From: Thermodesulfobacteriota bacterium
GTDB taxonomy: Bacteria; Desulfobacterota; Syntrophorhabdia; Syntrophorhabdales; JANXAF01
Direction of reading: 5' to 3'
DNA: 64,000 nt
NCBI GenBank assembly: GCA_025062045.1
Contig: JANXAF010000002.1
Span: 6,765-70,764 of the forward strand
Translations under genes and position numbers: made by a program
Notes under the pieces: model-generated
Database searches by the model: none
Told to the model about the DNA's origin: nothing
Seen by the model: only the letters and a program-made list of their open reading frames with translations
Shown here: one piece after another, positions 47,041 to 62,895 of the stretch
How positions within the stretch are numbered: the first letter of the stretch is position 1
Layout: each line of letters starts with the position of its first letter

Positions 47041-47085
47041 CTCATTCACTCCTTTCTTTCTGGTTTGTGAAACTGTTAACAACCT

Positions 47086-47460: not shown

Positions 47461-49443
47461 ATGGCCTACGAATTTTTCGAGTCTGTCCTTGTCGTTTTTG
47501 GAATATCCGCATCGATAATATACCTCCTTGGAAAAGTAAAGCTTCCATCCATTGTTGGTTTCCTTTTAGCTGGCACTATTATAGGGCCCTATGGGCTTGC
47601 TCTCATCAAAGACATAAAGGATGTGGAAATGACGGCTGAGATCGGGATTATCCTTCTTATGTTTACTATTGGAATTGAGTTTTCTTTAAGCAAACTTTCG
47701 GCTTTAAAAAAGGAAGTCTTTTTATTCGGTTCTCTCCAAATACTTTCCACAACGGCAATATGTACGTTTTTCGGCTACTTCATTCTTGACACAAAACTTA
47801 CAAGTTCCATCTTTTACGGGTTCGTCATAAGTTTGAGTAGCACAGCCATTGTAATGAAGCTACTTGCCGAAAAAGGCGAGTTGAATACGAGACACGGAAG
47901 GATATGTGTCGGGATTCTTCTATTCCAGGATCTGTGCGTTATTCCCTTTATGCTCCTCACAAGGCTTTTTTCCGAGGCAGAAATCCAACTTGCAGGAGGC
48001 TACATTTTCACTCTTTTTAAATCGATTCTCATACTCTTTTTCGTTTTTACTTTTTCAAGAACTGCTGTTCCCTACCTCCTCCACGAAATAGGAAAGACGC
48101 GCATGAGAGAACTTTTCATCCTTGTCACCGTCCTTATATGCATGAGTACTGCTTACTTTACATCGAAACTCGGTCTTTCCTTAGCCCTGGGGGCATTTCT
48201 TGCAGGAGTTTTGATCTCAGAGTCAGAATATTCTTCGCAGGTTCTTTCTGATATGCTTCCGTTCAAAGAGATATTTTCGGGGATATTTTTCATTTCCGTG
48301 GGGATGCTCCTCGATCTCGACTTTTTGAAACTAAGGTTTTTTGAGGGGCTTCTACTCGTTGGCACCGTCATTTTTATTAAAGCCTCTGCAATCTTTTTTA
48401 CAATCTACCCATATTTGAGGTCATTGAAGATCACCCTTAGGGCAGGTTTTTTTCTCGCCCAGATAGGAGAGTTCTCCTTTATTCTCGCCTTTGCCGGAAA
48501 GATGGCGGGTTTGATCGATGATTTTGAATATCAGACTTTTATAACGATAACCGTAGTGTCAATGCTACTTACTCCTGTAACTATGAAGTATACACCTGGT
48601 TTCGTGGATTTTCTTACCAAGAGAAGACCATTTTACTTTCTCGAAAAGACAAGTAGATTGAAGGATGGGGAGATACCGGTAAGAAAGACAAACCACGTAA
48701 TCATAATAGGTTTTGGCTTAAACGGAAGAAATTTGGCACGAGTTCTTAAAGAGTCCCAGATACCCTACGTAATTCTTGAGCTTAATCCCGAAACTGTCAG
48801 GAAATCGCGTAAAAGAGGCGAACCCATATACTACGGTGATGGAACAAGTCCCGAGATTTTAAGAAAATTGGGTATACGGTTCGCGAAAGTCCTTGTCGTT
48901 GCGATTTCAGATCCGATAGCTACCAAAAGGATAGTAGAAATCGCAAGGATGGAAAACCGAAAACTACACATAATTGTAAGAACACGCTACGTATCAGAGA
49001 TGGAAGAACTTCTGGCGCTTGGGGCAGATGAGGTGATTCCTGAGGAGTTTGAAACATCTCTCGAAATCTTCGGGCGCGTACTACACCACTTTGGCGTTCC
49101 AAGAAACAAGATTTTAGAAAAGATAGAAACTATAAGAAGCGACGGGTACAAAACCCTAAGGGCTGACACACTTGCCAAAACGAGGGTTGGTTTGGAGTGC
49201 TTCGTGGTGGAGGGGCTTGAAATGGATAGTTACTTTGTCGAAAAGGACTCTTGGATTTGCGGTAAATCGATAAGGGATATCGATCTCAGGGCAAAAACGG
49301 GCGCTACGATTATAGCGGTAAGGCGAAACGAAACTAATATACTTAATCCAGACCCTGACCTTCCAATAAGAGAGGGCGATATCCTAATCTACATTGGAAC
49401 AAAGGATCAGCTTCTATCAGCCTTTCACTACCTGAGTAAGTGA
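47461..49443 (+). CDS. Monovalent cation:proton antiporter-2 (KefB/KefC-like) with TrkA-N and TrkA-C (RCK) domains
   Basis: It has about 12 TM segments, then a Rossmann motif IIIGFGLNGRNLA and a C-terminal RCK_C (GKSIRDIDLRAKTGATIIAVRR). Its length is 660 aa. Confidence 0.88.
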   Translation: MAYEFFESVLVVFGISASIIYLLGKVKLPSIVGFLLAGTIIGPYGLALIKDIKDVEMTAEIGIILLMFTIGIEFSLSKLSALKKEVFLFGSLQILSTTAICTFFGYFILDTKLTSSIFYGFVISLSSTAIVMKLLAEKGELNTRHGRICVGILLFQDLCVIPFMLLTRLFSEAEIQLAGGYIFTLFKSILILFFVFTFSRTAVPYLLHEIGKTRMRELFILVTVLICMSTAYFTSKLGLSLALGAFLAGVLISESEYSSQVLSDMLPFKEIFSGIFFISVGMLLDLDFLKLRFFEGLLLVGTVIFIKASAIFFTIYPYLRSLKITLRAGFFLAQIGEFSFILAFAGKMAGLIDDFEYQTFITITVVSMLLTPVTMKYTPGFVDFLTKRRPFYFLEKTSRLKDGEIPVRKTNHVIIIGFGLNGRNLARVLKESQIPYVILELNPETVRKSRKRGEPIYYGDGTSPEILRKLGIRFAKVLVVAISDPIATKRIVEIARMENRKLHIIVRTRYVSEMEELLALGADEVIPEEFETSLEIFGRVLHHFGVPRNKILEKIETIRSDGYKTLRADTLAKTRVGLECFVVEGLEMDSYFVEKDSWICGKSIRDIDLRAKTGATIIAVRRNETNILNPDPDLPIREGDILIYIGTKDQLLSAFHYLSK

Positions 49444-50028
49444 TTCTGAGGAAAATATCGATGTAAGAAGATAAAGCGCTTGGAGATAAGAAGTTGGACA
49501 GAGGGGAAAACATTCTTTGCACCTGGCACACTCTTTAGATGCCACTTCTGGTATAAAACGGACTTCTCTTTTTAGCCCGCTTTCCATAAAAGTAATAGCG
49601 TACTTTTTCTTGATCTCCGCACAGTATCTAACACATAAACCACAAAGTATGCAGAATACAGGTTCTTTTGGAAATTTACCGTCTTCGGCCTGATACTCCT
49701 CTTTGAGCTTTTTGAGTTCGGGGGCTTCAGGAGCTCGGGCGAGTAAAAGTTCCACGATGATTTTTCTTATCTTTTCGACTTGAGGTGTCCTTGTCCTCAC
49801 AATAAGTCCCTCTTCAACTGGATAAAGACATGATACAACATAAGTTATTCTTCCTTTCGTCTCTATCTCCACGGTGCAGAGCCTGCAACCACCGTAAGGT
49901 TCTAGATCTTTCCTGTAACATAGAGTCGGAATCTCTATCCCTTCTTTAAAAGCTACATCTAGAATCGTCGTACCCTTTTCTGCCTTAACTTCCCTTCCGT
50001 CTATGACTATTTTTACGTCTGACATCAT
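49417..50028 (-). CDS. bamI: Class II benzoyl-CoA reductase BamI-like subunit (NuoG N-terminal-like [2Fe-2S]/[4Fe-4S] protein)
   Basis: It has IDGREVKAEKGTTILDVA...CYRKDLEPYGGCRLC (plant-type 2Fe-2S) and CILCGLCVRYC. It is the last gene of the bam-like operon. Confidence 0.8.
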   Translation of the reverse strand: MMSDVKIVIDGREVKAEKGTTILDVAFKEGIEIPTLCYRKDLEPYGGCRLCTVEIETKGRITYVVSCLYPVEEGLIVRTRTPQVEKIRKIIVELLLARAPEAPELKKLKEEYQAEDGKFPKEPVFCILCGLCVRYCAEIKKKYAITFMESGLKREVRFIPEVASKECARCKECFPLCPTSYLQALYLLTSIFSSESLTQVVKG

Positions 50029-51695
50029 TAACCCTCTCTTTTTAATCTCGATTCAAACTCGTGCCAAAAGTATTTGAGAGCGTTCTCAAGGGGATACGAT
50101 GCAGTTCTTCCAAGCGCGCAAAGGGATGCCTTTCTTTGAGCGTCGCATATTTCTTTTATGGTCTCTATGTCTTTTTTCGTGCCTTTACCCTCTCTTATCC
50201 TGTTTAGCAAGTTTTTTATCTGCCTTATCCCTTCCCTACATGGAACGCATTTCCCACACGATTCACCAGACAAGAAGTCTAAAAAGTAGAGAACTACTTC
50301 CAGCATATCGTCTGTCTCATCAAGAACAAGAAGCCCTCCCGCTCCTATTGGAGCTCCATACTCAGCCAAAGTATCGAAGTCCAACGGCAGATCGATCAAA
50401 TCTTTGGGGATCGATCCGCCCATCGCCGATCCTAGATGGACAGCCTTTAGAGCCCTTCCGTTTGTTGTTCCCCCACCAATCTCGTAGACTATCTCTCTGA
50501 GTGTAATTCCGAAGGGAACTTCAATAACACCAGCGTTCTTTATTTTTCCAGAAAGCGATATGAGTTTCGTTCCTTTACTTTTTTCTGTCCCTATAGCCGA
50601 ATACCATTCGGATCCTTTTGCCACAATTAGAGGAACATTTGCCCACGTTTCAACGTTATTGAGATTGCTCGGTCTCTCGTATATCCCACTTACGGAAGTC
50701 CTTATGTATTTTGGCCTCGGTTCCGGGACCCTCCCTTCTATCGATCTCATAAGCGCACTCGATTCGCCTGAAACGAATATCCCTATATCCAAATGGATCT
50801 CTACATCAAAATCGAAACCACTTCCCATTATGTTTTTCCCGACAAACCCATACTCTTTTGCTCTCTTTAATGCCACTTCCACGTTCCTTTTTAAGCTCGG
50901 CGAGTCATGTCTCAAGTATATAAAGCCCTCTTTCGCACCTATGGCATACGCACCTATTATCAAACCTTCAAGGACTAGGTGTGGATTCCCTTCTAGGATC
51001 GCCCTGTCCATGTAGGCACCGGGTTCGCCCTCGTGGGCGTTTACGATGACATATTTTATTTCTCCTTTTGCGTTTTTAGTTGTCTCCCACTTCTGACCAG
51101 CCGGAAATCCACCTCCTCCCCTACCTCGGAGATTTGCCTTTTTTATCTCTTCGAGAATTCCATCCGGCGACATCTCAAAGAGTGCTTTAGCCAAAGCAGA
51201 ATATCCACCTATTGCTATGTAATCCTCAATGCTTGTGGGATCGATTCTGGAATTATATTCGAGAATGTATCTCGTCTGCTTTTTGTAAAATGGGATCTCC
51301 TTTAGTTTTTGGATCCTACCTAAAGCTGGGTCTTCGTAGGTGAGTCTTTCCACTATCCTTCCAGAAAGTAATGTCTCTTCTATTATTTCCTCCACATCTT
51401 CCACTTTAACTTGGAGATAGCATATCTCTTCGGGATAAATTATGATGCTCGGCCCAGAAGAACAGAATCCATGACAACCCGTAAGCTTGACTTCTACCTT
51501 ACCTTTGAGCCCTTTTTTTTCTATTCCTTCCCTTAGGAGATGAGCAATCTTCGGACCCGATAACGCTCGACACGCCGCACCTCCACAAACGGAGATCGTC
51601 TTTTCCATAAGGGTTAGACGAGACTCAAGTATCTTTTTGAGCTCGAGAAACTCTTGGTAAGAATTTATCCGTTGCATAGTCCTTCCTTTTTTCAA
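50028..51695 (-). CDS. bamH: BamH-like subunit (NuoF-like NAD(P)H/FMN-binding iron-sulfur flavoprotein)
   Basis: It has the FMN/NADH site GRGGGGFPAGQKWE and the [4Fe-4S] motif SCGKCVPCREG. The TTG start at 51695 overlaps the bamG TGA, and the ATG at 51677 (MQRINSY) is an alternative start. Confidence 0.85.
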   Translation of the reverse strand: MKKGRTMQRINSYQEFLELKKILESRLTLMEKTISVCGGAACRALSGPKIAHLLREGIEKKGLKGKVEVKLTGCHGFCSSGPSIIIYPEEICYLQVKVEDVEEIIEETLLSGRIVERLTYEDPALGRIQKLKEIPFYKKQTRYILEYNSRIDPTSIEDYIAIGGYSALAKALFEMSPDGILEEIKKANLRGRGGGGFPAGQKWETTKNAKGEIKYVIVNAHEGEPGAYMDRAILEGNPHLVLEGLIIGAYAIGAKEGFIYLRHDSPSLKRNVEVALKRAKEYGFVGKNIMGSGFDFDVEIHLDIGIFVSGESSALMRSIEGRVPEPRPKYIRTSVSGIYERPSNLNNVETWANVPLIVAKGSEWYSAIGTEKSKGTKLISLSGKIKNAGVIEVPFGITLREIVYEIGGGTTNGRALKAVHLGSAMGGSIPKDLIDLPLDFDTLAEYGAPIGAGGLLVLDETDDMLEVVLYFLDFLSGESCGKCVPCREGIRQIKNLLNRIREGKGTKKDIETIKEICDAQRKASLCALGRTASYPLENALKYFWHEFESRLKREG

Positions 51696-52138
51696 AGGAT
51701 CTTTTCGATTACATTCTTTAAGTCCTCGGCCTTTATCCCCACGTAAACTTCACCATCCACTTCTATTTCTGGCCCAAGAGCGCATCTCCCAGAGCAAGAC
51801 GATGTTTCAAGCTTAAATTTCATATCGAGAGTCGTCTCCCCTTCCTCAATTCCTAGCAAGTTTTTTAGTTCCTCCAGTATCTTTTTGCCTCCCCGGAAGC
51901 AGCAAGAAGAACCCATGCATACCTTAACGGTGTGGTCAGCACGCGGTATTAAACTAAAGGCTTTATAGAAACTCGCCATTCGGAATATCTCGCCCGGTGG
52001 CAAAGATAGTTTTTCGCCAAGATAGAAGACGGACTCCCTAGGAATGTAACCTTTCTCATGCTGGATGTCTATTAGCATCTCTACGAGGTAATTTCGTTTA
52101 CCGTTATACTTGGCAATTATTCTATCTAGCCACTCCAT
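51692..52138 (-). CDS. bamG: BamG-like subunit (NuoE-like thioredoxin-fold [2Fe-2S] protein)
   Basis: It has CMGSSCC...CSGRCALGP spacing typical of NuoE/HoxE and is 148 aa. Confidence 0.85.
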   Translation of the reverse strand: MEWLDRIIAKYNGKRNYLVEMLIDIQHEKGYIPRESVFYLGEKLSLPPGEIFRMASFYKAFSLIPRADHTVKVCMGSSCCFRGGKKILEELKNLLGIEEGETTLDMKFKLETSSCSGRCALGPEIEVDGEVYVGIKAEDLKNVIEKIL

Positions 52139-52890
52139 CTTGGGCTCCTTCTGGTCTCTGATATTAAAAATCCTTCCCTTTCTAACTCTCCCAAAAGCTT
52201 AATGGCCTTACGCATTTCCAATTCACGAGATTCTTCTAGCCAAGCTTTGGGGTCTATTCCTTTCTTTCTTGATCTTAGGATAAGGACCATCCTTATCTTG
52301 TCGAGTATAAGCTTCTCGATCATCCTCTCTACATCCCTATCATTGAAAAGTTCATCTATGGCCTTTACGCTATTTTCAGGGAACCTCAGTCTTTCCCTCT
52401 CAACCAGCTTTATATATGGTAAGAGACTGAGTACCGCATCTAGCCTTTCGGTAAGGACTTCTTGTGCCAAATTTTCTTTCTTTCCTATTGGGCCTAAATC
52501 CTTCATCTCTTTGATGAAACTATTCATGACCTCCGCAAATCTCACCCCTTCTGCCGACGAGAGGAACTCCATCCTTAGCCTTTTGGGATCTAACCCTATA
52601 AAGCCGAAGATTCTTTTTAAAAGCAGTGTCATGGCGTAAGCGTGCAGATTCCCGTCCGTTGCATAATGGCATTCCCCAGGAAGACAGCCTACTATTATGA
52701 TCCCGTCTGCCCCTTCCTTTAGGGATGTTATCACGAAGGAAGGGTCAACCCTTCCTGTGCACATTACACGGATTAACCTGATATCTGGGGGGTATTGCAG
52801 CCTGGAAACTCCAGCCAGATCGGCTGCCCCGTACCCTCACCAAAAACAAACAAAGCCTATTAGTTTTGGTGCGTATTCGAAGGTGTTCAT
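52126..52890 (-). CDS. bamF: BamF-like subunit (MvhD-like), predicted selenoprotein with an in-frame UGA (codon 18, 52837-52839)
   Basis: An AGGAGG SD precedes the ATG at 52890. Translation gives MNTFEYAPKLIGFVCFW-TGA-GYGAADLAGVSRLQYPPDIRLIRVMCTGRVD..., in frame with the ORF-track fragment 52126-52764. The TGA aligns with the second Cys of the MvhD motif CxWCxY. Confidence 0.8.
52790..52836 (-). promoter_or_regulatory. Candidate bacterial SECIS hairpin immediately 3' of the bamF UGA
   Basis: On the mRNA, positions +4 to +50 can form GGGUA/UACCC, GCAGC/GCUGC and CUGG(A)/(U)CCAG stacked stems. The apical loop lies about 26-34 nt after the UGA. Confidence 0.5.
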
Positions 52891-52898
52891 CTTCCCTC

Positions 52899-55800
52899 CT
52901 AGTCCTTTTCCTTATAAGCCTTAAGCCCCTCTCTTATCTGTGTCAAAAGTTGATTATCTGTGAAATGCTTAAGCTGGATAGCGTTCGTCGGACATTTAGC
53001 ACAGCAAAGTCCATCGCCTTTGCATAAAACTGGATTGACTTTAGCCTTCTTTCCTTTTTCCGTCTCGTAAAAGTCTACTGCGCCGTAAGCACACACAGAT
53101 ATGCAAGCACCACAAGACACACACGCGTCTTCGTCCACTTCGCACACGGATCCAGAAGCATAAACATATTCACTCGAAAGAACTGTTATCGCCCTTCCTG
53201 CCGCACCATATGCTTGATTTACAGTCTCGTTTATGTGTTTTGGATAATGGGCCATTCCGCACAAAAATACTCCTTCCGCGGAGAAATCGACAGGCCTTAG
53301 CTTCACATGGGCCTCTTGGAAGAATCCGTCCGGGTTCAAGGGAACTTTAAAAAACTTTGAAATCTCACGGTTCTTCTTGGAAGGAACTACAGCCGAAGCA
53401 AGAACGAGTATATCAGCTTCCAGCTCGAGCTCTTTCTTCATGATTCGATCCAGAACAACTATTTTCATCAATTCCTTTCCATTAAATGTTTGGACTTTAA
53501 GTTCTGGCGGTCTTTCGACATCATACCGTATGAAGCGAACGTTCTTACCCTGGGCTTCCCTATAATACTCCTCAAAGAACCCATATGTCCTCATATCCCT
53601 AAAGAGGATGTATATGTCTTTGTCGGGATATCTCTCTTTCACCTTCAATGCATTTTTAATCGAATGGCTACAGCAGATTCTGCTACAGTAATTCCTCTCC
53701 CTATTCCTTGAACCGACACACTGGATCATAACTATTGAATTTGCTTCTTTTAAAATCACGTCATCCTTTGCCACCACTTCCTCAAATTCCAGGTTTGTTA
53801 ACACAGATTTGAGCGTGCCGTATCCGTACTCATTAGGCTTTAGCTCTTCCGCCCCGACAGCTATTATCGCAACCCCATGTTTTATGACAGAGATTTGGTC
53901 CTTTGTCCTTATCCGTGTCTCAAAATTCCCGATGTATCCTGACACATCCACGATCTCCGAATTCGTCCTCACATGGATCCTGGGATCAGAATGAACCTGT
54001 CTTATAAGCTCCTCGGTGTAAGATCGAATGTCGAACCCATCTAAGGTAAAGTAGAGCTTTTTTGCGTATCCCCCAAGCTCTTTCTCCTTCTCAATAAGAT
54101 AAACCTCATAGCCCTGTCTCGCTATGCTTAGCGAGCAGACCATTCCGGCGATACCGCCGCCAACGACCAGAGCCCTTTTGTCAATGGGCAGTTTCAGCTC
54201 CTCAAGAGGTGCAAGATGCACAGCCCTCGCAACTGCCATTCTTACTATGTCTTTGGCTTTTTTTGTGGCAAGTCTTTTCTCTTTGGGATGGACCCATGAA
54301 CAGTGCTCTCTTATGTTAGCCATCTCGAAGAAATACTGATTGATTCCCCCTTCCCTTAGCGTATCACGAAATAGGGGTTCGTGGGTTCTCGGTGTACATG
54401 CAGCGACAACCACTCTGTTTAATTTTTTTTCCTTTATGACTTCCGCTATTTCCTTTGCGGTATCAGTGGAGCACGCAAATATGGACTCTTGGGCATGTAC
54501 GACGTATTTTAATTTTGACGCAAATTCAACCACTTCCGGCACATTGACAACCCTACCTATATTGGCGCCGCAGTGGCACACAAACACCCCGACTCGGATC
54601 TCCTCACCTTTGGTATCCCTTTCTTCTGGGTAAACCCTCTCCTTCGTTAGAAGGTTTCTCCTTATTGTCAGTAACTCTCCGCACTGGCTTGCGGCACCAC
54701 TTCCTGAAACTACCGATTCTGGAATGTCCATGGGGCCAAGAAATGCGCCGCTTACAAATATGCCGGGCCTTGAACTTTTGATCGGGTTCGAAAGTGAGGA
54801 TTTGGAGAATCCGTATCCGTTAAGCTCGATTCCAAACTTTTTTGCAAGTTCGTCATGTCCTTGAGGAGGCCTGAGCCCGACCGAGAGTACCACCATATCG
54901 AACTCTTCTTCCTTTACTCCTTCTTCTGTGGCATATTTGATTCTTAGGTTTTTCGTCTCCTCGACTTCACGTTCCAAAGAGACATAGCTCCTTATGAACC
55001 GAACACCACTAAGGTTCGACGCTCTCTCATAAAACCTTTCGAAGTCTTTTCCAAAGGCCCTTATATCATTATGAAAGACCACGCATTCACACTCCGGTTC
55101 GTGCTCCTTTGTAAGGATCACCTGTTTCTGCGTATAGGCACAGCATACTGATGAACAATAAGGAGATCCGGGTTCCCTTACAGTTCTTGATCCAACACAC
55201 TGTATCCAGGCAACCTTTTTCGGATGAGTCTTATCCGATCTCCTTAATATCTCCCCCTCATAGGGACCGGTTGAACAGAGTAGTCTTTCGTATTCGAGGC
55301 TCGTTATTACGTTTTCGTAAAGTCCGTATCCAAACTCGGCTGTAAGAAAGGGATCAAAGACTTCAAATCCCGGTGCGAGTATTATCGCTCCTACTTCTAT
55401 CTCCTCCCTTTTCGGCTTTTGAAAAAGGTCTATCGCTCTATTCTTACATACTCCCGCACATATTGAACATTTTTCACCACCAAGGTAAAGACAGTTGTCC
55501 CTCTCTATGTATGCAACAAGGGGAACCGCCTGAGAGAAATAAACGTGGATCGCCTTGTTTTTGGAGAGCCTCTCGTTGTATTCGTCATCCACTTTTATCG
55601 GACAGAACTCGGTGCAAAGCCCACATCCCGTGCATTTACTCTCATCTATGTACCTAGGCTTTTTTATTAGTGTCACAGTAAATTCAGGATATTCTCCTTC
55701 GACTTTTTCGATCTCAGTGTAAGTTAGAATCTCTATGTTTGGATGTCTGCTACACTCCACAAGTTTAGGAGACTCTATGCACATTGAGCAATCGTTCGTA

Positions 55801-56009
55801 GGAAACGTTTTGTCCAGCTTCGCCATGTGTCCGCCTATTCCAGGAGCCCTTTCAACGAGATAGACCCTAAAACCTGACGAAGCAAGATCTAAAGAAGCCT
55901 GAATTCCACTTATGCCACCTCCCACAACCATTACATCCGCAATCTTTTTCCTCTCAAAGTCTTTAATGAGTTCTAGTATCCTTTCCTTCGTTATTATTTC
56001 CCCTCTCAC
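52899..56009 (-). CDS. bamE: BamE-like subunit: tandem HdrA-like FAD/iron-sulfur protein (1036 aa)
   Basis: It has two FAD-binding starts (VVGGGISGIQASLDLA, VVGGGIAGMVCSLSIA) and two CVGSR...YCS..CC blocks. It also has an inserted and a C-terminal 2x[4Fe-4S] ferredoxin domain. Confidence 0.88.
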   Translation of the reverse strand: MRGEIITKERILELIKDFERKKIADVMVVGGGISGIQASLDLASSGFRVYLVERAPGIGGHMAKLDKTFPTNDCSMCIESPKLVECSRHPNIEILTYTEIEKVEGEYPEFTVTLIKKPRYIDESKCTGCGLCTEFCPIKVDDEYNERLSKNKAIHVYFSQAVPLVAYIERDNCLYLGGEKCSICAGVCKNRAIDLFQKPKREEIEVGAIILAPGFEVFDPFLTAEFGYGLYENVITSLEYERLLCSTGPYEGEILRRSDKTHPKKVAWIQCVGSRTVREPGSPYCSSVCCAYTQKQVILTKEHEPECECVVFHNDIRAFGKDFERFYERASNLSGVRFIRSYVSLEREVEETKNLRIKYATEEGVKEEEFDMVVLSVGLRPPQGHDELAKKFGIELNGYGFSKSSLSNPIKSSRPGIFVSGAFLGPMDIPESVVSGSGAASQCGELLTIRRNLLTKERVYPEERDTKGEEIRVGVFVCHCGANIGRVVNVPEVVEFASKLKYVVHAQESIFACSTDTAKEIAEVIKEKKLNRVVVAACTPRTHEPLFRDTLREGGINQYFFEMANIREHCSWVHPKEKRLATKKAKDIVRMAVARAVHLAPLEELKLPIDKRALVVGGGIAGMVCSLSIARQGYEVYLIEKEKELGGYAKKLYFTLDGFDIRSYTEELIRQVHSDPRIHVRTNSEIVDVSGYIGNFETRIRTKDQISVIKHGVAIIAVGAEELKPNEYGYGTLKSVLTNLEFEEVVAKDDVILKEANSIVMIQCVGSRNRERNYCSRICCSHSIKNALKVKERYPDKDIYILFRDMRTYGFFEEYYREAQGKNVRFIRYDVERPPELKVQTFNGKELMKIVVLDRIMKKELELEADILVLASAVVPSKKNREISKFFKVPLNPDGFFQEAHVKLRPVDFSAEGVFLCGMAHYPKHINETVNQAYGAAGRAITVLSSEYVYASGSVCEVDEDACVSCGACISVCAYGAVDFYETEKGKKAKVNPVLCKGDGLCCAKCPTNAIQLKHFTDNQLLTQIREGLKAYKEKD

Positions 56010-56025
56010 CTTTCTTCCCCTTCTT

Positions 56026-57177
56026 TCAAGTTACCTCATTTATAATCTCTGTCAGATCCTTAATCTGCAAGCCTTCTTCATATCCTAGAACCAATCTACT
56101 GTCTTCTAACGCAGTAATACAGTAAGGACATGCACTCACAATGTAGTTCACGCCTAGTCTTACCCCCTCTTTTACCCTTATATTCGAGAATCTCTCAGTT
56201 TTTTCAGTCTCCGCCCATATCCTTCCACCACCCATTCCGCAACAGAGACTCGAAGCTCTATTCTCCCGAAATTCCAAGACTTTAAGAGAGTCAACCGACG
56301 CTAACACCTTCCTCGGTTCCTCGAAAATGCCACTGTGTCGCCCTAGATAGCATGGATCGTGATAGACAGCACATCCATTCATCTTTTTATCTATGGAGAG
56401 TCTTTTTGACTCTATGAGCTTATATATGTACTCAGATATGTGGACGATTTCGAAACTCGCCCCAAAGATGGGATACTCGTATTTGAAAGTGTAGTAGCAG
56501 TGGGGAGAGGAGGTAACTATTCTTCTTACACCAAAGTCGACGAATCTTTTTATGTTTTCTTTGGCAAGCCTTTTAAATACATCTTCGTTTCCAGTCTTTC
56601 TTATACTTTCTCCGCAGCACATCTCAAAATCCCCTAAAATACCGAAATCCACTTTCGCCTTCTTAAGCAATTGAACCTGGGCTTTAGCTACATTTTTAAG
56701 CCTCGGATCGTAACACATATAGCAGCAGACGAATAAAAGAATTTCCATCCCTTCTTCGTAAGTCGGCACATGGAGCTCTTCTGCCCATCTTGAACGTTCT
56801 TTCGGATCTTCATTGAATGGGTTTCCCGAAGATGTAAGGTACGTGGCAACCTGTCTATAAGTTTTTACTGAAGCTGGAAAAACTCCGTAAGATGTTGCCA
56901 TTCTCCTTAAGGCAACCATATCCTCTATTTGCCTTACATCCCTAGGACACAGAAGAACACACTTTCCACACGTTGTGCAGATCCAGATGTCCTCTTTTTC
57001 TATCTCCGAAAGTCCAAATGTGGCATCTCTTATTATCTTCCTTACACTTAAAGTTCTTACCCGATTCCACGGGCATACGGCATCGCACTTACCACACTGG
57101 TAACAGTACTTTATTCTCTCGCCACCGTACCTATATATCTCTTCTATAACCTCTTTTTCGGGGACGAACCTTTCCAT
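56026..57177 (-). CDS. bamD: BamD-like subunit (HdrD-like: 2x[4Fe-4S] plus two CCG domains)
   Basis: It has CYQCGKCDAVCP and CTTCGKCVLLCP, followed by the CCG motifs MCCGES and LCCGMGGG. Its length is 383 aa. Confidence 0.85.
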   Translation of the reverse strand: MERFVPEKEVIEEIYRYGGERIKYCYQCGKCDAVCPWNRVRTLSVRKIIRDATFGLSEIEKEDIWICTTCGKCVLLCPRDVRQIEDMVALRRMATSYGVFPASVKTYRQVATYLTSSGNPFNEDPKERSRWAEELHVPTYEEGMEILLFVCCYMCYDPRLKNVAKAQVQLLKKAKVDFGILGDFEMCCGESIRKTGNEDVFKRLAKENIKRFVDFGVRRIVTSSPHCYYTFKYEYPIFGASFEIVHISEYIYKLIESKRLSIDKKMNGCAVYHDPCYLGRHSGIFEEPRKVLASVDSLKVLEFRENRASSLCCGMGGGRIWAETEKTERFSNIRVKEGVRLGVNYIVSACPYCITALEDSRLVLGYEEGLQIKDLTEIINEVT

Positions 57178-57180
57178 TGG

Positions 57181-57726
57181 CTACCTCTGGATTTCTTTGG
57201 CTACTTTCGCTATCGTGTCAATAACCTTCTCAAGTCCATGTCGTCTAAGAAGTGTCATTACCGAAACCGTAAGCTCATCTGTCTTTCGAGGTTCTATCTC
57301 GACTTCTCTTTCAACGTAAGTTAGGGCACCGGGATGGCATTCCTTTACACAAAATGGGATGTCTGTGTCTTCACCTTCACACCCGTCACATTTCAAAGGA
57401 AGGCCCGATTCCGGATCCTTAAATGAGTCCCTTGAAGGACAGGATGCAGGACAGAACTCACACGTTTTGAATTCCCTGCCCTTTATTGTGAAGGCGTTTC
57501 TGGCGTTACATTCGGCTTCCGTGTACTGTCCGGCCCTGATCGCTATGTAGTTATCTGAAAATTCGTCTATTAGCACACGTATTCTCGCCCTTGCAGGGTT
57601 TACGCTCGCGTATTTTGGCGTTGCGTGAATCTGTGAGCAGACTATCTCACAGGATCTACAGCCTGTGCACTTGTCCATATTGAACCTTATCTCTTTAATC
57701 TTCTTTTTTATCCTCTGTCCTTCCAT
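57181..57726 (-). CDS. bamC: BamC-like subunit (multi-[4Fe-4S] ferredoxin partner of the AOR-family subunit)
   Basis: It has CTGCRSCEIVC plus further Cys clusters. I place the start at MEGQRIKK (57726), which follows an AAGGAG SD lying just after the bamB stop. The ORF-track start at 57759 would overlap bamB. Confidence 0.8.
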   Translation of the reverse strand: MEGQRIKKKIKEIRFNMDKCTGCRSCEIVCSQIHATPKYASVNPARARIRVLIDEFSDNYIAIRAGQYTEAECNARNAFTIKGREFKTCEFCPASCPSRDSFKDPESGLPLKCDGCEGEDTDIPFCVKECHPGALTYVEREVEIEPRKTDELTVSVMTLLRRHGLEKVIDTIAKVAKEIQR

Positions 57727-57746
57727 CTTTTTGCGCTCCTTTGGCC

Positions 57747-59711
57747 TTATATCCCCCAAGGATACATGTCTTTGTACTTTTCGTAGACGTTTGGAACCTC
57801 ATCATTTCCTGTGAGAATTCCTCTTTTTAGGAAATCCTCAGCCACAAAATCCAGATTCAGTTTTCTTAAAGTCTCAACCGTAGGAATCCCTTCTTTTGTC
57901 CATCCCTGATACTCATAGTAGCAGTCAAGTAATATCTGTTCGTACTCCGGATTCCTAACCGCCCAGTGGTCTTCAGGCGGCTTTTCGTCAGCCCTTCTCA
58001 TACCCCTCCTCACGTTAAGCGCCCGGACGAGATTTCTATTTCTTTTGTAAACTGTCCAAACCTTGTCCTCATCAAACTCAACGCCCGTAGTAAGTTCAAG
58101 AATCTGGGGAATGTTATGGATATGATAGACGGTTCTCCCACCGAACTGACCCCTAAAGGAAGACACAAATCCGCAAAGGCCCGTTGCGTCGTCTATATAG
58201 TGCATGGCCTCGTTCCATTCAGTTATGGCGCAGGCCATCTCTATCGTCACTCTCTCCCTCTTTTCCCATTCGAGAAACCATCTTTTGAACCTCTCATCCT
58301 TTGCCGCAACCCAACCCTCTACAAATTTTTCCCTCTCTTCGCGGGTAGGGAGAGGATCCTGCGGAAATGAGCCTTCTATTTGAGTTATGTTCATCTTTTC
58401 ACCGGTTGCGATCATTAAGAAGTATGGTGGGTTCAGTTTTCCGAGTTTTATTGGAACCTGTTCGAACTTCTTGGTGGTATTGTGATCGTAAGCTTCTGCT
58501 CCTTTGCCTATCTTCCTTGCAGCCCAATAAACCCCATCGGCAAGGATGTCTCCTATCCCCTCCCTTTTTACGATTTTATCGAGAAAGTAGAAGAAGCGAC
58601 CCTTTATATCCTTTGGCATCCCCGGAAGGTCGTTATCTGTCAGTATCCCCGCCTCATAGAGCTCAAGGGCAAATGCGATGACTTGCGGGGTTGTGTAGGA
58701 GTCTAGTCCTAGATTCTGAGCGACACCCAGTATATCGTAACTAAAGTCCAATTCCTGGAATGCTGCCATATGGTACGTGTCTTTTCCGAAACATTTGTAG
58801 GAGAATCTCTTTCTGCCAGGCCAGGATATAACGTTATGGCATTTTTTTGGACAGTTAAAACATCCGGTCTGTCTGTCCAAATGATCGTATTTTAATTTTG
58901 TGAATCTCTCCTGAATCTCTGGCGTCCAATATCCTTTCCTCCTTACCCTTGCGTTTCCCCATGCGAAGTTGTCATGGTGGAAGCTATCGTCTTCATCTAC
59001 CGCCATCCAGTCACCCACAAAGGGATTTTCAGCTATCTCCTTTCTCAATCTGTTTCCAAGCTCAAAAACTTTTTCTGGATTTGCAACGTAAACATCTTTC
59101 GTTCCCCTTATTGCTATCGCCTTGAGCCTTTTGTCGCCCATTACCGCTCCAGCACCCCTTGCTGCGCTGGCATGGCTGTGATCGATCGATGCGTAGTAGA
59201 CCCTATTTTCACCGGCAGGTCCTATAGCTGCTATTTGGAAGCTATAGCCCAGTTCTTTTTTTAGAACTTCCTGAGTATCGTACGTCCCAAGCCCTTTTAA
59301 GTGGCTTGCATCTCTTATTTCGACTTTGTCGTTGTATATGAGTATGTATACGAGTTTGTCGGCCTTTCCTTTAATGATTATCTTGTCGTATCCCGCAAAT
59401 TTCATCTCCGGCCCGAAATAGCTTCCCATCATTGTATGCGCGTGAAGATTGGTCTGGGGAGAAAAGGTGTTGACGATTGTTCTATTTGCGCCTGGGATCG
59501 GGGTGCCACAAAGTAGCCCGGAACTAAAAATCAAAAGGTTGTCCGGAGAAAAAGGTTCAACCTCCGGGGGTACCCTATCCCATAGGATCCTGTCTGCCGA
59601 TCCCTGGCCTCCGATGTAAAGCTCAAGCCAGCTTGGATCAGATTCAACTTTTTCTATGTTTCCTGTTGATAGGTCAATCTCCAAGAAGTAACCTGTTTCT
59701 GCGTACCTCAT
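57747..59711 (-). CDS. bamB: BamB-like catalytic subunit: tungsten bis-pyranopterin aldehyde:ferredoxin-oxidoreductase-family protein
   Basis: It has the AOR N-domain (MRYAETGY...ILWDRVPPEVEPFSPDNLLIF) and AOR catalytic domains, and is 654 aa. It is followed by the C-D-E-F-G-H-I-type genes in the canonical order. Confidence 0.9.
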   Translation of the reverse strand: MRYAETGYFLEIDLSTGNIEKVESDPSWLELYIGGQGSADRILWDRVPPEVEPFSPDNLLIFSSGLLCGTPIPGANRTIVNTFSPQTNLHAHTMMGSYFGPEMKFAGYDKIIIKGKADKLVYILIYNDKVEIRDASHLKGLGTYDTQEVLKKELGYSFQIAAIGPAGENRVYYASIDHSHASAARGAGAVMGDKRLKAIAIRGTKDVYVANPEKVFELGNRLRKEIAENPFVGDWMAVDEDDSFHHDNFAWGNARVRRKGYWTPEIQERFTKLKYDHLDRQTGCFNCPKKCHNVISWPGRKRFSYKCFGKDTYHMAAFQELDFSYDILGVAQNLGLDSYTTPQVIAFALELYEAGILTDNDLPGMPKDIKGRFFYFLDKIVKREGIGDILADGVYWAARKIGKGAEAYDHNTTKKFEQVPIKLGKLNPPYFLMIATGEKMNITQIEGSFPQDPLPTREEREKFVEGWVAAKDERFKRWFLEWEKRERVTIEMACAITEWNEAMHYIDDATGLCGFVSSFRGQFGGRTVYHIHNIPQILELTTGVEFDEDKVWTVYKRNRNLVRALNVRRGMRRADEKPPEDHWAVRNPEYEQILLDCYYEYQGWTKEGIPTVETLRKLNLDFVAEDFLKRGILTGNDEVPNVYEKYKDMYPWGI

Positions 59712-59715
59712 GCTT

Positions 59716-60492
59716 TCACTCCTTCTGAGCTTTTTGACTGTTTTGCTCGTCTATCTCTTTTGCAGTGGAAATAAGTAGGTTAACGACATCAGTTATTTTA
59801 CTTTCGGGAAGCTGGCTTTTAAGGCCCACAACCCATATGGCCGATTGCACAGTTCTACTGCCTGAGGCAACCGGAACTGCAAGGCCAACCATGCCTTCTA
59901 TATATTCTTCAAAGTCGTATGCTACTCCTTCCCTCTTTACCCTGCGGATCTCCTCTTTATACTTCTCTCTATCTACTATACTTTTTTCGGTATACCGTTT
60001 GAACTCTACCTTTGCCAAAACCTCGTCAATCTTCTCTTCAGGAAGTTGAGAAAGCATCGCTTTTATTCCGGCTCCTGCAAGGGGTGGCATGACCATTCCT
60101 ATTTCCGAGCTAAGCTTTATTCCGTAATCGGCTTCCACTTTATCTATAAGTACGGCTTGGGAGCCCGACCGTACTCCGAGAAATACGGATAGGCCTGTTT
60201 TTTCCTTAATAAGATCGAGGTACGGGTGTACCTTGTGGATCATATTTGACCCTCTCGCGCTCATGCTGGCCAAACTGTAAAAGAGAGTGCCTAAAGCGAA
60301 TTTCCCCGAGGGAAGCGATTCAAGAACGCGAAGCTCAGAGAGGGTGTAAGTTATGTTGTAAACGGTACTTTTGTTTAAGCCCAATCTCTTTGAAATCTCT
60401 GTTATTCCTAGGGGTGTTTGAGCTTTTGCCAAGGTCTCTATTATTTTAAAGCATTTCTCTACTGCCGGGACTTTTCGAAATTTGTTCTCCAT
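59716..60492 (-). CDS. IclR-family transcriptional regulator, 4 bp upstream of bamB
   Basis: It has a wHTH (LGITEISKRLGLNKSTVYNITYTL) and an IclR effector domain, and is 258 aa. Confidence 0.85.
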   Translation of the reverse strand: MENKFRKVPAVEKCFKIIETLAKAQTPLGITEISKRLGLNKSTVYNITYTLSELRVLESLPSGKFALGTLFYSLASMSARGSNMIHKVHPYLDLIKEKTGLSVFLGVRSGSQAVLIDKVEADYGIKLSSEIGMVMPPLAGAGIKAMLSQLPEEKIDEVLAKVEFKRYTEKSIVDREKYKEEIRRVKREGVAYDFEEYIEGMVGLAVPVASGSRTVQSAIWVVGLKSQLPESKITDVVNLLISTAKEIDEQNSQKAQKE

Positions 60493-60506
60493 GTTGAACG
60501 TTATGT

Positions 60507-60535
60507 TTTATATAATAAACGGCAAGCTATGTCAA
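60507..60535 (-). promoter_or_regulatory. Sigma70-like promoter of iclR-bamBCDEFGHI (TTGACA-N17-TATAAA)
   Basis: The minus strand reads TTGACAtagcttgccgtttattaTATAAA. There are 14 nt to the ATG at 60492 and no SD, so the leader is very short. Confidence 0.45.
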
Positions 60536-60548
60536 GGATTTTTTAGAT

Positions 60549-62294
60549 TCAGAGGCTTTCGAGAATTTGGGCCAACATTCTTTCAAGCTTTGCCTCTTCT
60601 GTATCATCCGCGTATTTTGGCGGAAGAACATCTGGGAAGAACTGGAATATGCCCTTTATGATGACCTCCGCATGGGGTGGACATCCGGGAAGATGGATAC
60701 CATTTTTCGCGTTGTGAAGCTGACAAGTGCCCATGAATAGATTTACTCCATTAAGATCTATTTCTCTTCCAGCGTATGGACCAACGTAGATTTTTACAGG
60801 CTTTTCTAACGGTCTGTCTATGAGGAGATTTCCTGGTTCTTTTGGGTCTGGCCTTCTGAGTTTATGGAGAACGAAATGCAAGTATCCTTTACATCCCGGA
60901 CAGGCTCCCTCCTCGTAAATCTTTAGGTCCCGACCTGAATTTAGATTTATTTTTGGCATCTTGAAGGGACTTCTAACCTCTTCTATCTTCGCCCCTATTA
61001 CCTTTATCCTTTCCTGCTCAACAGGACCAAAACCCTGAATGTACGCTAAAAGAACGGGTGGTGAATCGAATGGCTCAAGCCCCATTATTCTCATACAGGT
61101 TGCGTCTATGGCAACCGGGTTTTCTCCTCCGATCAAAAGATTCATGACCTTCGGACTTCCCGATACGGGACCGAAGTCTTCTTGACCGACAAGGCCATCA
61201 ACTATCGTTAGTTTTGTTCTCACAAGATAATGGATGTTTACAAGGTTCTGCCAAAGGCCGAAAAAGTGAGTCATGTACTTTTCTATAGGCGGCATTGTAC
61301 CTTGAAGATTCTTTATGGCAAGCGAAACACAGGCTGCAAAATGGAGTTTCATTACAGGAAGGTTTATGATGACATCCGCATCGAGGAGCGTTTTCGGTAC
61401 TTTCCTTGAGTTCATCCTCCTCCCGTAGGGAACAGGCATCTCCACAGTCTCATCAGTATTTAAGTCAACAAGGCTTACCTTTCCTGGAAAAGACTCTTCC
61501 AGTCTATCGTAACCGTAGATCTTAAACATCTTCGTTGTTGCACTTCTATTTATGGAAGAGCCCTCAGCAACGATGATCCGGGAAGCGTAAGGTAAAAGGT
61601 GCCTAATTAAAGCGTAGACGAGCCTTAAGTCTGTAACAACTCCCCCTTTGTATATGCCATTCACCATACCGTGGTCGGCAACGATATTGGGTTTCAAAAC
61701 TACTGTTTGGCCTTTTTTCACATATTTTCTCACGCCTCCTAGCTTTTCAAAGAGTTCTTTTACCGCCTCGTAGATGTCTTCTTCCGACTGGGCCGGATTA
61801 ACTCTTTGGATGACAACCCGTTCTACTTTTTTAGAAGGTTTTATCTGCTTTATCTCTTTTAGCCTATCGAAGTATACAACTGTACTTAGTTCGAGCTTCT
61901 CTCTGACATAGGACCCATCTTTTACGTATCGAAATGGCCTAAAGCCATAGTCGATAAGGAGCCTCCTCTTTTCTAGATCCATCTTATGGATAGTTGCGGA
62001 GACAAGACTGTGCTTAGCTAAAATGGAATCAAGCGCACAAAAAACTATCTCAGATTGGTTTGGACTTTCGTCTATGTATATCTCCTCTATGTTGCTTTTT
62101 TCCAGGTCAAATACCAAAAAGCCGGAAAATTTTTCTCTTTTCTCTATCCCGTATACTAGAGGCTTCCCTTTTTTCCAATTGCTCCATAGAAAATCCGCAT
62201 ACCCTTCCATTCCTCCAAGCTTCGCGTAATAAGCAGAGATTGCCTTCCTTATCTTCTCAGATAATCTTATCCTTTTAAGGACCACTCCTTCCAT
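60549..62294 (-). CDS. Fusion protein: N-terminal GNAT-like domain plus DUF362 domain with a C-terminal Cys-rich region
   Basis: Residues from about 190 onward (GQTVVLKPNIV...VINLPVMKLH...AIDATCMRIMG) resemble DUF362. The N-terminal 140 or so aa resemble an acetyltransferase fold. The tail reads CPGC...C...GCPPH. Confidence 0.6.
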   Translation of the reverse strand: MEGVVLKRIRLSEKIRKAISAYYAKLGGMEGYADFLWSNWKKGKPLVYGIEKREKFSGFLVFDLEKSNIEEIYIDESPNQSEIVFCALDSILAKHSLVSATIHKMDLEKRRLLIDYGFRPFRYVKDGSYVREKLELSTVVYFDRLKEIKQIKPSKKVERVVIQRVNPAQSEEDIYEAVKELFEKLGGVRKYVKKGQTVVLKPNIVADHGMVNGIYKGGVVTDLRLVYALIRHLLPYASRIIVAEGSSINRSATTKMFKIYGYDRLEESFPGKVSLVDLNTDETVEMPVPYGRRMNSRKVPKTLLDADVIINLPVMKLHFAACVSLAIKNLQGTMPPIEKYMTHFFGLWQNLVNIHYLVRTKLTIVDGLVGQEDFGPVSGSPKVMNLLIGGENPVAIDATCMRIMGLEPFDSPPVLLAYIQGFGPVEQERIKVIGAKIEEVRSPFKMPKINLNSGRDLKIYEEGACPGCKGYLHFVLHKLRRPDPKEPGNLLIDRPLEKPVKIYVGPYAGREIDLNGVNLFMGTCQLHNAKNGIHLPGCPPHAEVIIKGIFQFFPDVLPPKYADDTEEAKLERMLAQILESL

Positions 62295-62334
62295 CTCTAT
62301 CTCTCCTTTCTTGGCTTTATAGAGGGAAAACCCA

Positions 62335-62895
62335 TCAGGGGACCATCTCGTACTCCAAAGCGATGAAAGGCATAGGATCGATAAGTTTCAAAATGTTGGT
62401 GTCCGTCATAACGGACCAATCTAATCTATATGGGAGATCTTTAAGTAAAATTCCAAAAGAAATGTGAATATGGGGGGTTATGTCTTTTTGCCTTTTTGCC
62501 GCAAGGGTACCTATAACTTCACCTCTTTCAAAGCACATACCCTTTTGCAAATTATTTTCCACATTTATGTGTCCCAAAGCCCATACTATGTTTGGATGCG
62601 AAAAGAAAAAAACTGATCTCCCAAGATAGTCATCGATGGAGGACAAAACCTCGCCAGAAAAGATACACGGGATGAGCGTCCCTTCCTCTAACTTTTCGAT
62701 TTTCCCGTTTTTCTTTCTATAAAAGCAGAGGTCTACTCCTTCATGAGGTCTCTTTCTCATTTCCGTGGGTCTCCACCACATCTTCCAGCTTTCAAACAAC
62801 ATCCCTGGACGGAATACCCAGTTTCTAAACCCGTCCAGTCTTTTTTTGTTCACCTTACAAAAGAGGGCGCTCCAGTCTTTTTTACATTTTATCAC
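62335..62895 (-). CDS. M23-peptidase-like protein without a signal peptide
   Basis: It has an HxxxD motif (HEGVD) and an HxH motif (HIHIS), is 186 aa, and has no N-terminal hydrophobic segment. Confidence 0.55.
   Translation of the reverse strand: MIKCKKDWSALFCKVNKKRLDGFRNWVFRPGMLFESWKMWWRPTEMRKRPHEGVDLCFYRKKNGKIEKLEEGTLIPCIFSGEVLSSIDDYLGRSVFFFSHPNIVWALGHINVENNLQKGMCFERGEVIGTLAAKRQKDITPHIHISFGILLKDLPYRLDWSVMTDTNILKLIDPMPFIALEYEMVP

Follow-up and report, generated by a model that had tools for sequence, protein, structure and literature searches.

A gene cluster very probably encoding a class II benzoyl-CoA reductase-type complex, of a sister type to that of Geobacter, in a thermophile-like relative of Syntrophorhabdus

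The stretch of DNA considered here (the window, 64,000 nt of contig JANXAF010000002.1; coordinates and strands are those of the window) carries nine co-directional genes on the minus strand, from 49417 to 60492, which encode a regulator of the IclR family followed by the subunits BamB, C, D, E, F, G, H and I. They are tightly packed, the spacing within iclR-bamI running from a 13-nt overlap (-13) to a 16-nt gap (+16). We read the locus from the genes alone. The set of eight subunits is complete, their genes follow the canonical order and each has the cofactor-binding residues it needs, and we consider it very probable that the locus encodes a dearomatising complex of the class II benzoyl-CoA reductase (BCR) type of some kind. 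A first-pass annotation of the window had already called a complete locus of this type, iclR-bamBCDEFGHI, and the call has held: it now has behind it the matches of BamB and BamC to solved structures in the PDB, the tungsten-ligating cysteine, the BamB tree, the selenocysteine (Sec) codon with its hairpin and the gene order. The packing and coordinates of the nine genes were likewise given correctly, as were the domain calls for all nine products, on which Pfam and NCBIfam agree.

The leading gene, iclR (59716-60492, on the minus strand like all those that follow), encodes a 258-aa protein with HTH_IclR and IclR_C domains, and its stop lies 4 nt ahead of the bamB start. The tungsten-pterin catalytic subunit BamB (57747-59711, 654 aa) has the domains AFOR_N and AFOR_C, and the polyferredoxin BamC (57181-57726, 181 aa) has 12 cysteines, enough for three [4Fe-4S] clusters. 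BamD (56026-57177, 383 aa) is HdrD-like, resembling a fusion of HdrB and HdrC, with two CCG domains and a Fer4 domain; BamE (52899-56009, 1036 aa) is a fused double HdrA-like flavoprotein, recognised by its HdrA matches and an internal repeat; and BamF (52126-52890, 254 aa, with Sec18) is an MvhD-like adaptor whose FlpD domain covers residues 11-133 (E 4e-44). The last three products are BamG (51692-52138, 148 aa), a thioredoxin-like [2Fe-2S] subunit of the NuoE/HydC kind (2Fe-2S_thioredx, E 2e-40), BamH (50028-51695, 555 aa), a short form of the NuoF/HydB-like FMN/NAD(H) subunit as seen from its Pfam domains and its cysteines, and BamI (49417-50028, 203 aa), which resembles the N-terminal parts of NuoG and HydA and has the domains Fer2_4 and Fer4_7 and 12 cysteines. 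The start of bamC is most likely the ATG at 57726, as called on an identical Logan contig (run SRR15826899), the alternative being a TTG at 57759 that would give 192 aa. No Bam subunit reaches the cut-off of an NCBIfam equivalog, and the HoxE and NuoE models also stay under theirs for BamG, so automatic annotation would yield only generic names; public records label the homologues "aldehyde ferredoxin oxidoreductase".

A candidate sigma-70-like promoter (60507-60535, minus strand) sits in the 56-nt gap before iclR, with a -35 box TTGACA at 60535-60530, a 17-nt spacer and a -10 box TATAAA at 60512-60507, leaving a leader of only about 8 nt to the iclR ATG. Read straight off the sequence, a promoter upstream of iclR is plausible, and the end coordinate of the first-pass annotation, 60535, is the first base of this -35 box. 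That annotation had put all nine genes behind one promoter; the site is there, but its singleness is not provable, and a generic scan for promoters and terminators found sites in the region to be no more numerous than in shuffled sequence (it missed the TTGACA/TATAAA site because it demands a T at position 6 of the -10 box). The regulator itself falls under the cut-off of every NCBIfam equivalog (it scores 108 bits for the PcaR/PcaU/PobR family). In about 12 other loci the gene immediately upstream of bamB encodes a homologue of 43-68% identity, and in a clustering of the flanking open reading frames (ORFs) IclR was the commonest neighbour of bam clusters (20 loci). This IclR protein probably controls the bam operon in response to an aromatic ligand.

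The identity of the catalytic subunit is the central point. In a search of the PDB sequences BamB matches the BamB of Geobacter metallireducens (4z3w_A) over residues 1-634, with 777 bits and 55% identity, the next-best match being the aldehyde ferredoxin oxidoreductase (AOR) of P. furiosus at 220 bits, and BamC matches the Geobacter BamC (4z3w_E) with 185 bits and 50% identity. Cys307 of the window protein aligns with the tungsten ligand Cys322 of Geobacter, and the [4Fe-4S] cysteines 284, 287, 291 and 513 are present. BamB shares its fold family (AFOR_N and AFOR_C) with the AORs, which are about 30% identical to it, with the tungsten oxidoreductases (WOR) and with the YdhV-type (class V) enzymes, and YdhV has the cysteine ligand as well; the YdhV model PRK09849 covers residues 6-226 only, that is the N-terminal domain, scoring 236 bits where the cut-off is 868.

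Among 1.84 billion cluster representatives searched, those nearest to BamB fall into three groups, namely a fragment of its own type (71% identity), the Geobacter type (55% to the window protein and 65% to the Geobacter one) and an odd representative (50%) that has Asn in place of the cysteine ligand; beyond these, the matches drop to 45% identity and 494 bits at most. In a neighbour-joining tree (65 sequences, 100 bootstraps) the window-type and the Geobacter-type clades each have 100% support, they are sisters at 84%, and both are joined to the 50% representative at 100%, well apart from AOR, FOR and GAPOR. Such a phylogeny had been proposed in the first-pass annotation as a check, and the call stands up to it, with one qualification: the protein groups with BamB and away from the other oxidoreductases, but its subclade is sister to the one that contains the characterised enzyme. 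About 7,660 proteins match the window BamB at E <= 1e-100, and the best 120 of these are 70-94% identical; as judged from these matches the window type is widespread and common. BCR-type enzymes have been assigned to clades 62 (with Geobacter) and 63 (PMC13328260), and the window type may be clade 63.

These data bear on a very different idea, that the tungsten protein oxidises aldehydes, in an electron-bifurcating enzyme comparable to the class IV WOR1 and joined here to modules of the Hdr and NuoEFG kinds. The names in the public records would agree with it, and BamH and BamI do have near relatives in a bifurcating WOR complex (9mqx, chains B and A). We nevertheless regard this as very improbable, since the bit score of BamB is three to four times higher for the solved BamB than for any AOR, the cysteine ligand to tungsten is found in BamB and YdhV and in no aldehyde-oxidising member of the family (PMC12096430), and the bifurcating WORs are without HdrA-, HdrD- and MvhD-like subunits (PMC13328260).

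The second point that had to be settled is the reading of bamF, which in our annotation starts at the ATG at 52890 and reads through a TGA at 52839-52837 to give 254 aa, whereas a plain ORF finder had placed its start at 52764. This UGA (52837..52839, minus strand) stands in the motif FVCFW-U-GYGAAD, at the same codon position in the homologues: among 44 distinct bamF sequences the codon is TGA in 23 and TGC or TGT in 21. Behind it lies a stem-loop (52797-52827, minus strand) like a bacterial selenocysteine insertion sequence (SECIS), with a core CUGG-AGUUU-CCAG at 52814-52802, 25-37 nt past the UGA, a GU in the loop and, in the window, an extension by GCAGCC/GGCUGC. The core hairpin is present in all 23 TGA-containing genes and in none of the 21 Cys-containing ones, and the peptide encoded there, AGVSR, is common to both sets. 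The z-score of the whole fold, taken over the 76 nt after the UGA, is not significant, and it is therefore the comparison of the 44 homologues that carries the case for a SECIS element; Rfam and tRNA scans of the window came back empty, with neither a tRNA-Sec nor a SECIS family.

Taken at face value, the TGA would end translation, leaving bamF as a pseudogene or as a short gene from the ATG at 52764 and the complex without its full set of subunits; the ORF finder does give a 212-aa ORF from there, and genes for the Sec machinery are not seen in the window. We think this reading even less credible than the aldehyde oxidoreductase, because the frame continues upstream through the conserved N-terminus of MvhD, including the first cluster cysteine, the TGA recurs at the same codon in the 23 homologues and at the Sec19 of Geobacter, and the hairpin is restricted to the TGA-containing genes. 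These comparisons argue strongly that the hairpin is a bacterial SECIS element and that Sec is indeed inserted in BamF. The MvhD of the methanogen complex (5odc_D) matches BamF with 143 bits over residues 5-141 only, leaving a C-terminal extension of about 120 aa, which agrees with a published account in which BamF exceeds MvhD by more than 100 aa and carries Sec19 in G. metallireducens (bioRxiv 10.64898/2026.04.10.717634).

BamE consists of two HdrA-like halves (internal repeat, E 3e-26) and a C-terminal domain for two [4Fe-4S] clusters, and three of its stretches match HdrA (5odc_A) with 640 bits. With an offset of +15, the motif CSMC (residues 74-77) has its counterpart in Cys59-Cys62 of Geobacter, and Lys295 in Lys280. 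Lys295 also aligns, in the 5odc_A alignment, with Lys409 of HdrA, which we take to sit by the flavin, and it is predicted to lie by the bifurcating FAD of BamE. In 40 homologues neither Cys74 nor Lys295 varies; position 77 is Cys in 30 of them and Sec in 10. In the second half, Lys785 might be a difference from Gln768 of Geobacter, a point to which we give no weight. The second cysteine of the CxxC pair (a pair proposed as the electron relay from the bifurcating flavin; the codons for CSMC are at 55779-55790 in the window, where it is Cys) is replaced by a TGA (Sec) codon in 11 loci of Bacillota and Dehalococcoidales (L007, L009, L025, L030, L036, L037, L044, L058, L059, L072 and L075), and the BamE of D. 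multivorans has been reported with Sec (PMC5109826).

BamD has the two cubane motifs Cys25/28/31/35 and Cys67/70/73/77 and, in its CCG domains, Cys152/155/187/188 with His226 and Cys227, and Cys276/312/313/350/353. Position 155 (codon 56713-56715) is Cys in the window and in its close relative L001; it is Ser in 36 of 41 BamD homologues linked to window-type bamB and in 26 of 32 linked to the Geobacter type. By cryo-electron microscopy, a Cys-to-Ser change in the Geobacter BamD is reported to turn the distal non-cubane cluster into a [3Fe-4S] cluster, one said to be disrupted in most homologues (bioRxiv 10.64898/2026.04.10.717634). If position 155 is the Geobacter Cys/Ser site, the BamD of the window may belong to a minority with a complete distal non-cubane cluster. 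As a separate matter, bamD is absent between bamC and bamE in L081, as it is in several other window-type clusters (L008, L023, L028 and L059); this subunit, the high-potential output, seems to be dispensable or encoded elsewhere.

Among the electron-transfer subunits, the clearest departure from Geobacter concerns BamH. Its cysteines account for the N-terminal [2Fe-2S] domain (Cys37/42/74/78) and for the N3-type [4Fe-4S] cluster (Cys480/483/486/526), with no other cluster cysteines; its Pfam domains run to residue 549 of 555, and the chain ends six residues past the NADH_4Fe-4S domain. Neither Pfam nor the cysteine motifs nor the PDB alignments reveal a C-terminal ferredoxin domain with two [4Fe-4S] clusters. 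In the Geobacter BamH the N-terminal [2Fe-2S] domain and the FMN/NAD(H) core are joined by a helical bundle with a [4Fe-4S] cluster and by a C-terminal ferredoxin-like domain with the clusters H1 and H2, to which the role of accepting external reduced ferredoxin has been ascribed (bioRxiv 10.64898/2026.04.10.717634). The bifurcating HydB-type chains in the PDB, which BamH matches with 500-600 bits, all extend about 70 aa beyond the C-terminus of the window protein. BamI, whose PDB relatives are 8a6t_A and 9mqx_A, has just 12 cysteines for three clusters of its own (one [2Fe-2S] and two [4Fe-4S]), so that the missing domain has not moved there. Nor is this an assembly error, since BamH is short in 18 window-type clusters (553-574 aa, with no CxxCxxCxxxC in the tail) and long in 13 (623-656 aa, with two such motifs). 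Among the Geobacter-type clusters in which BamH was captured it is long in seven out of seven; the association of length with type has p = 0.009 by Fisher's exact test, for loci that are not phylogenetically independent. The statement that order, sizes and domains all match Geobacter is thus right as to the order and has to be qualified for BamH, which is about 90 aa shorter and lacks this domain, and for BamB, which is of the sister subclade and has an altered loop.

The resemblance of the whole to the G. metallireducens complex is otherwise close. Beyond the eight subunits in the same order, both have a cysteine ligand to tungsten and a [4Fe-4S] cluster in BamB, three clusters in BamC, two cubane and two CCG motifs in BamD, a fused HdrA dimer with the CxxC motif and the flavin lysine in BamE, a long MvhD-like BamF with Sec at the same position, and BamG, BamH and BamI related to HydC, HydB and the N-terminus of HydA. 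The differences, besides the short BamH, are the 55% identity of BamB, its placement in a sister subclade with an 11-residue deletion and loop substitutions, Cys155 of BamD, an IclR gene at the head of the operon and a thermophile-like composition. In the copy of the PDB used, searches with BamD, BamE, BamF, BamH and BamI met only Hdr, Mvh and Hyd relatives and no Geobacter chains. With the HdrABC-MvhAGD complex of methanogens (5ODC) the locus shares the bifurcation core, BamE, BamF and BamD being homologous to HdrA, MvhD and HdrBC; it differs in having a duplicated, fused HdrA, no hydrogenase and a BamF lengthened by the extension mentioned above, and in that the output is a tungsten enzyme instead of ferredoxin. 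The HydABC-type complexes (8A6T, 7T2R, 7P5H, 9MQX) match in BamH, BamG and BamI (HydB, HydC and the N-terminus of HydA), and it is the C-terminal domain with two [4Fe-4S] clusters, carried by all of those chains, that the window BamH is without. The class II BCR complex of Desulfosarcina cetonica is the second to have been characterised (bioRxiv 10.64898/2026.04.10.717634), and in the locus of a Desulfosarcina metagenome-assembled genome (MAG), L069, a window-type bamB heads bamCDEFGHI, with a short BamH.

That the window encodes the class II, ATP-independent, tungsten- and selenium-dependent complex BamBCDEFGHI with benzoyl-CoA as its substrate is, we think, probable, an opinion held with less assurance than the broader assignment made at the outset. 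A candidate partner operon on the minus strand, with the genes dctPQM of a tripartite ATP-independent periplasmic (TRAP) transporter (42212-39351) and then a gene of the benzoate-CoA ligase family (39346-37784), probably takes up and activates benzoate or a related aromatic acid. The ligase scores 493 bits for TIGR02262 (cut-off 375). It had been said to lie next to the bam genes, which is not so, being 10 kb from bamI with eight genes between; homologues of it (47%) and of DctP (47-50%) do stand beside bamB in other loci.

Several observations weigh against benzoyl-CoA as the substrate. Four BamB residues, Glu251, His255, Glu257 and His260, are listed as invariant; they bind Zn2+ in the resting enzyme and form a proton path to the ring (PMC12096430). 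Only His260 is kept in the window protein, Glu251 falling in the deletion and His255 and Glu257 being replaced by Glu and Asp. The loop concerned (residues 233-249) reads GDWMAVDEDDSFHHDNF, and on this sequence the acidic and histidine patch is retained, but rebuilt; His255 varies within the Geobacter-type clade as well. Geobacter-type and window-type bamB genes stand side by side in at least seven loci (in Burkholderiales MAGs and one Desulfobacteraceae MAG), the Geobacter-type copies being 65-74% identical to the Geobacter BamB with the motif SPQEM..VDE.WHT, and the maintenance of two types together argues for distinct roles. In the literature we found no member of the window subclade with demonstrated benzoyl-CoA reduction; the BamB confirmed by proteomics in D. 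anilini shares 80% identity with that of Geobacter (PMC6114531) and is thus of the Geobacter type. Finally, neither the window nor the 10 kb beyond its start contains a gene for a dienoyl-CoA hydratase, a hydroxyacyl-CoA dehydrogenase or a ring hydrolase; selA, selB, selC, selD and etf genes are likewise missing from both, and the window has no tungstate transporter gene. The absence of the ring-cleavage, etf and sel genes says little, since genes of the bamR/bamQ/bamA type, etf and sel genes are usually not beside the bam cluster in other genomes (PMC1924859). Nor is the neighbourhood elsewhere of any help on the substrate: a clustering of 491 flanking ORFs gave no recurring enoyl-CoA hydratase family beside window-type clusters (dch, had and oah were sought).

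The alternative to which these points lead is that the same machine acts on another substrate, a hydroxy-, methyl- or amino-benzoyl-CoA or a heteroaromatic CoA ester, the Geobacter-type paralogue being the true benzoyl-CoA reductase. In its favour, the two types are neighbours (some of them apparently sharing a single bamDEFG set), BamB is only 55-57% identical to that of Geobacter and its loop is rebuilt at the site of the substrate and the proton relay; several bamB paralogues of obscure role are moreover known in many degraders (PMC4148979, PMC5109826, PMC1924859), and the second-best match of the ligase is a 3-hydroxybenzoate-CoA ligase, albeit far under its cut-off. We nonetheless consider this unlikely, though far less so than the two alternatives discussed earlier, because window-type bamB alone heads complete B-to-I clusters in about 25 loci, no Geobacter-type copy is found within the 64 kb, the ligase passes the cut-off of the benzoate-CoA ligase family, and both the cysteine ligand and His260 are kept. 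Benzoyl-CoA accordingly stays, for us, the probable substrate.

A word is needed on how the homologous loci were collected. The scan used exact back-translated peptides, one of which, DWMAVDED, is specific to the window subclade and blind to Geobacter-type bamB; a second scan, seeded with a Geobacter-type representative, served as a counterweight. The motif GDWMAV-DEDDSFHH (with the 11-residue deletion relative to the Geobacter BamB) is common to all 80 of the best-matching loci. The conclusion that the window type dominates, which might be drawn from this figure, was rejected, as the seed peptide was the motif itself; the uniformity of the 80 loci is uninformative on abundance. The paired types occur in L039, L041, L047, L056, L060, L061 and L068 (and partially in L038, L043 and L076), where the Geobacter-type bamB lies beside window-type bamBC, usually divergently oriented; in L047, L056 and L060 bamD-E-F-G follows only the Geobacter-type copy. 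Two catalytic modules may share one electron-transfer module in the paired loci.

By homology with G. metallireducens, electrons from NAD(P)H would enter at the FMN of BamH and pass through the Fe-S clusters of BamH, BamG and BamI and the [2Fe-2S] cluster and Sec of BamF to the flavin of the first BamE half, where they would be bifurcated. The low-potential electron would travel through the clusters of BamE and BamC to the tungsten-pterin of BamB, which would reduce benzoyl-CoA to cyclohexa-1,5-diene-1-carbonyl-CoA by transfer of a hydrogen atom and a proton via a water ligand and the equivalent of His260; the high-potential electron would leave through BamD to an acceptor such as the electron-transferring flavoprotein (ETF), the acceptor in Geobacter. 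As the window BamH is without H1 and H2, the confurcation of ferredoxin and NADH proposed for Geobacter cannot occur at BamH, and either NAD(P)H alone would feed the complex or ferredoxin would dock at another cluster. The potential of NADH is -320 mV. The acceptors stand at -622 mV (benzoyl-CoA) and about +16 mV (ETF) (bioRxiv 10.64898/2026.04.10.717634). With NADH as the sole donor, the mean acceptor potential is calculated as about -303 mV, and the NADH-only reaction would be close to equilibrium, not forbidden.

One may go further and suppose that the locus represents a separate, uncharacterised and widespread lineage of class II aryl-CoA reductases, wired unlike that of Geobacter, with NAD(P)H as the only donor or another ferredoxin site, a rebuilt proton relay in BamB and maybe an intact distal cluster in BamD, the window version being the most heat-adapted one sampled. 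We offer this tentatively, as a possibility that the genes suggest. As a gene find the locus is ordinary, class II BCR clusters being already known; what the sequence comparisons add is its membership of a common sister type in which BamB, BamH and possibly BamD deviate from the Geobacter model. Few biological reductions run at so low a potential as the one catalysed by the class II BCR, on which the degradation of aromatics by strict anaerobes hinges, and to our knowledge only the Geobacter enzyme is understood structurally. The lineage of the window falls short of two features central to the model built on that enzyme, the ferredoxin-entry domain of BamH and the "invariant" Glu251, His255 and Glu257, and this raises the question whether the confurcation of ferredoxin and NADH is general for ring reduction or a speciality of the Geobacter type. 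A complete and probably thermostable version, from a relative of Syntrophorhabdus, would be a good object for structural work.

The inference of thermophily, already made in the first-pass annotation from the protein composition, is borne out by the fraction of the residues IVYWREL, which is 0.439 over 50 window proteins (19,130 residues). For the Bam subunits it is 0.440, the top value among 25 complete homologous clusters (L001 has 0.423 and the others 0.387-0.414). The Zeldovich relation is T = 937F - 335, and the amino-acid composition thus suggests a growth optimum of about 75-77 C. Thermophilic Desulfatiglandales with Bam genes are known from metagenomes of a benzene culture at 70 C (PMC10570749), so a thermophilic class II BCR is not new in itself. 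As for the host, its GatB is 79% identical to that of a Deltaproteobacteria MAG and about 70% to those of many Syntrophorhabdaceae MAGs, which makes this family its nearest named kin as judged by GatB. The Syntrophorhabdaceae are a family of syntrophic aromatic degraders, and Syntrophorhabdus degrades phenol and benzoate syntrophically.

About 25 loci share the order bamBCDEFGHI, in Desulfobacterota, Bacillota, Dethiobacteria, Gammaproteobacteria and other groups. The nearest bam loci are L001 (MAG SKW240, BamB 93% identical) and L081 (Logan SRR23854657, 7634-11357, BamB 94%), both of which keep the frame DUF362-iclR-bam...-kef. A third architecture, without bamD and bamGHI, is seen in Dehalococcoidales MAGs (L007, L009, L030, L037, L044 and L072): window-type bamB-bamC, a shorter HdrA-like gene of 50% identity, bamF with Cys, separate hdrC- and hdrB-like genes and a regulator of the PaaX type.

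In the surroundings of the operon, a candidate lower-pathway gene (45883-47082, minus strand) encodes an acyl-CoA dehydrogenase nearest to the non-decarboxylating glutaryl-CoA dehydrogenases, with 447 bits for NF045552 GlutCoADH_Des, just under the cut-off of 470. In the minus-strand segment 44850-47082 this gene is followed by a lone ATPase of the BcrAD/BadFG type (267 bits for the acyl-CoA dehydratase activase model), near which there are no genes for a dehydratase or for class I reductase subunits. Convergent with the ligase operon, the segment 32358-37416 (plus strand) holds three genes, one for the alpha subunit of indolepyruvate:ferredoxin oxidoreductase (704 bits, above the cut-off) that stands alone, unaccompanied by iorB, another of the IclR family, and one for an 808-aa molybdo- or tungsto-enzyme of the dimethyl sulfoxide reductase family without an assignable type; a 682-aa Fdh-alpha-like enzyme, 32% identical to this 808-aa protein and often accompanied by FdhD, adjoins bamB in 12 other loci. 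Farther off, downstream of an NlpC/P60-LysM gene, lies a 406-aa ORF (16565-17785, plus strand) with no match in Pfam or NCBIfam.

At its two ends the operon meets genes of other kinds. The 3' end of bamI overlaps a convergent gene for a Kef-type K+/H+ antiporter by 27 nt (49417-49443), and the sole terminator-like hairpin after bamI (49317-49302, minus strand) lies within that antiporter gene. Directly upstream of the putative bam promoter (60549-62895, minus strand) stands the gene of a DUF362 protein of 581 aa, extended by about 170 aa at its N-terminus, and ahead of it an ORF of 141-186 aa that has no Pfam or NCBIfam match and whose HxxxD and HxH motifs resemble those of an M23 peptidase. 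The DUF362 gene and the M23-like ORF are both kept in place in L001, and the DUF362 gene in L081 too.

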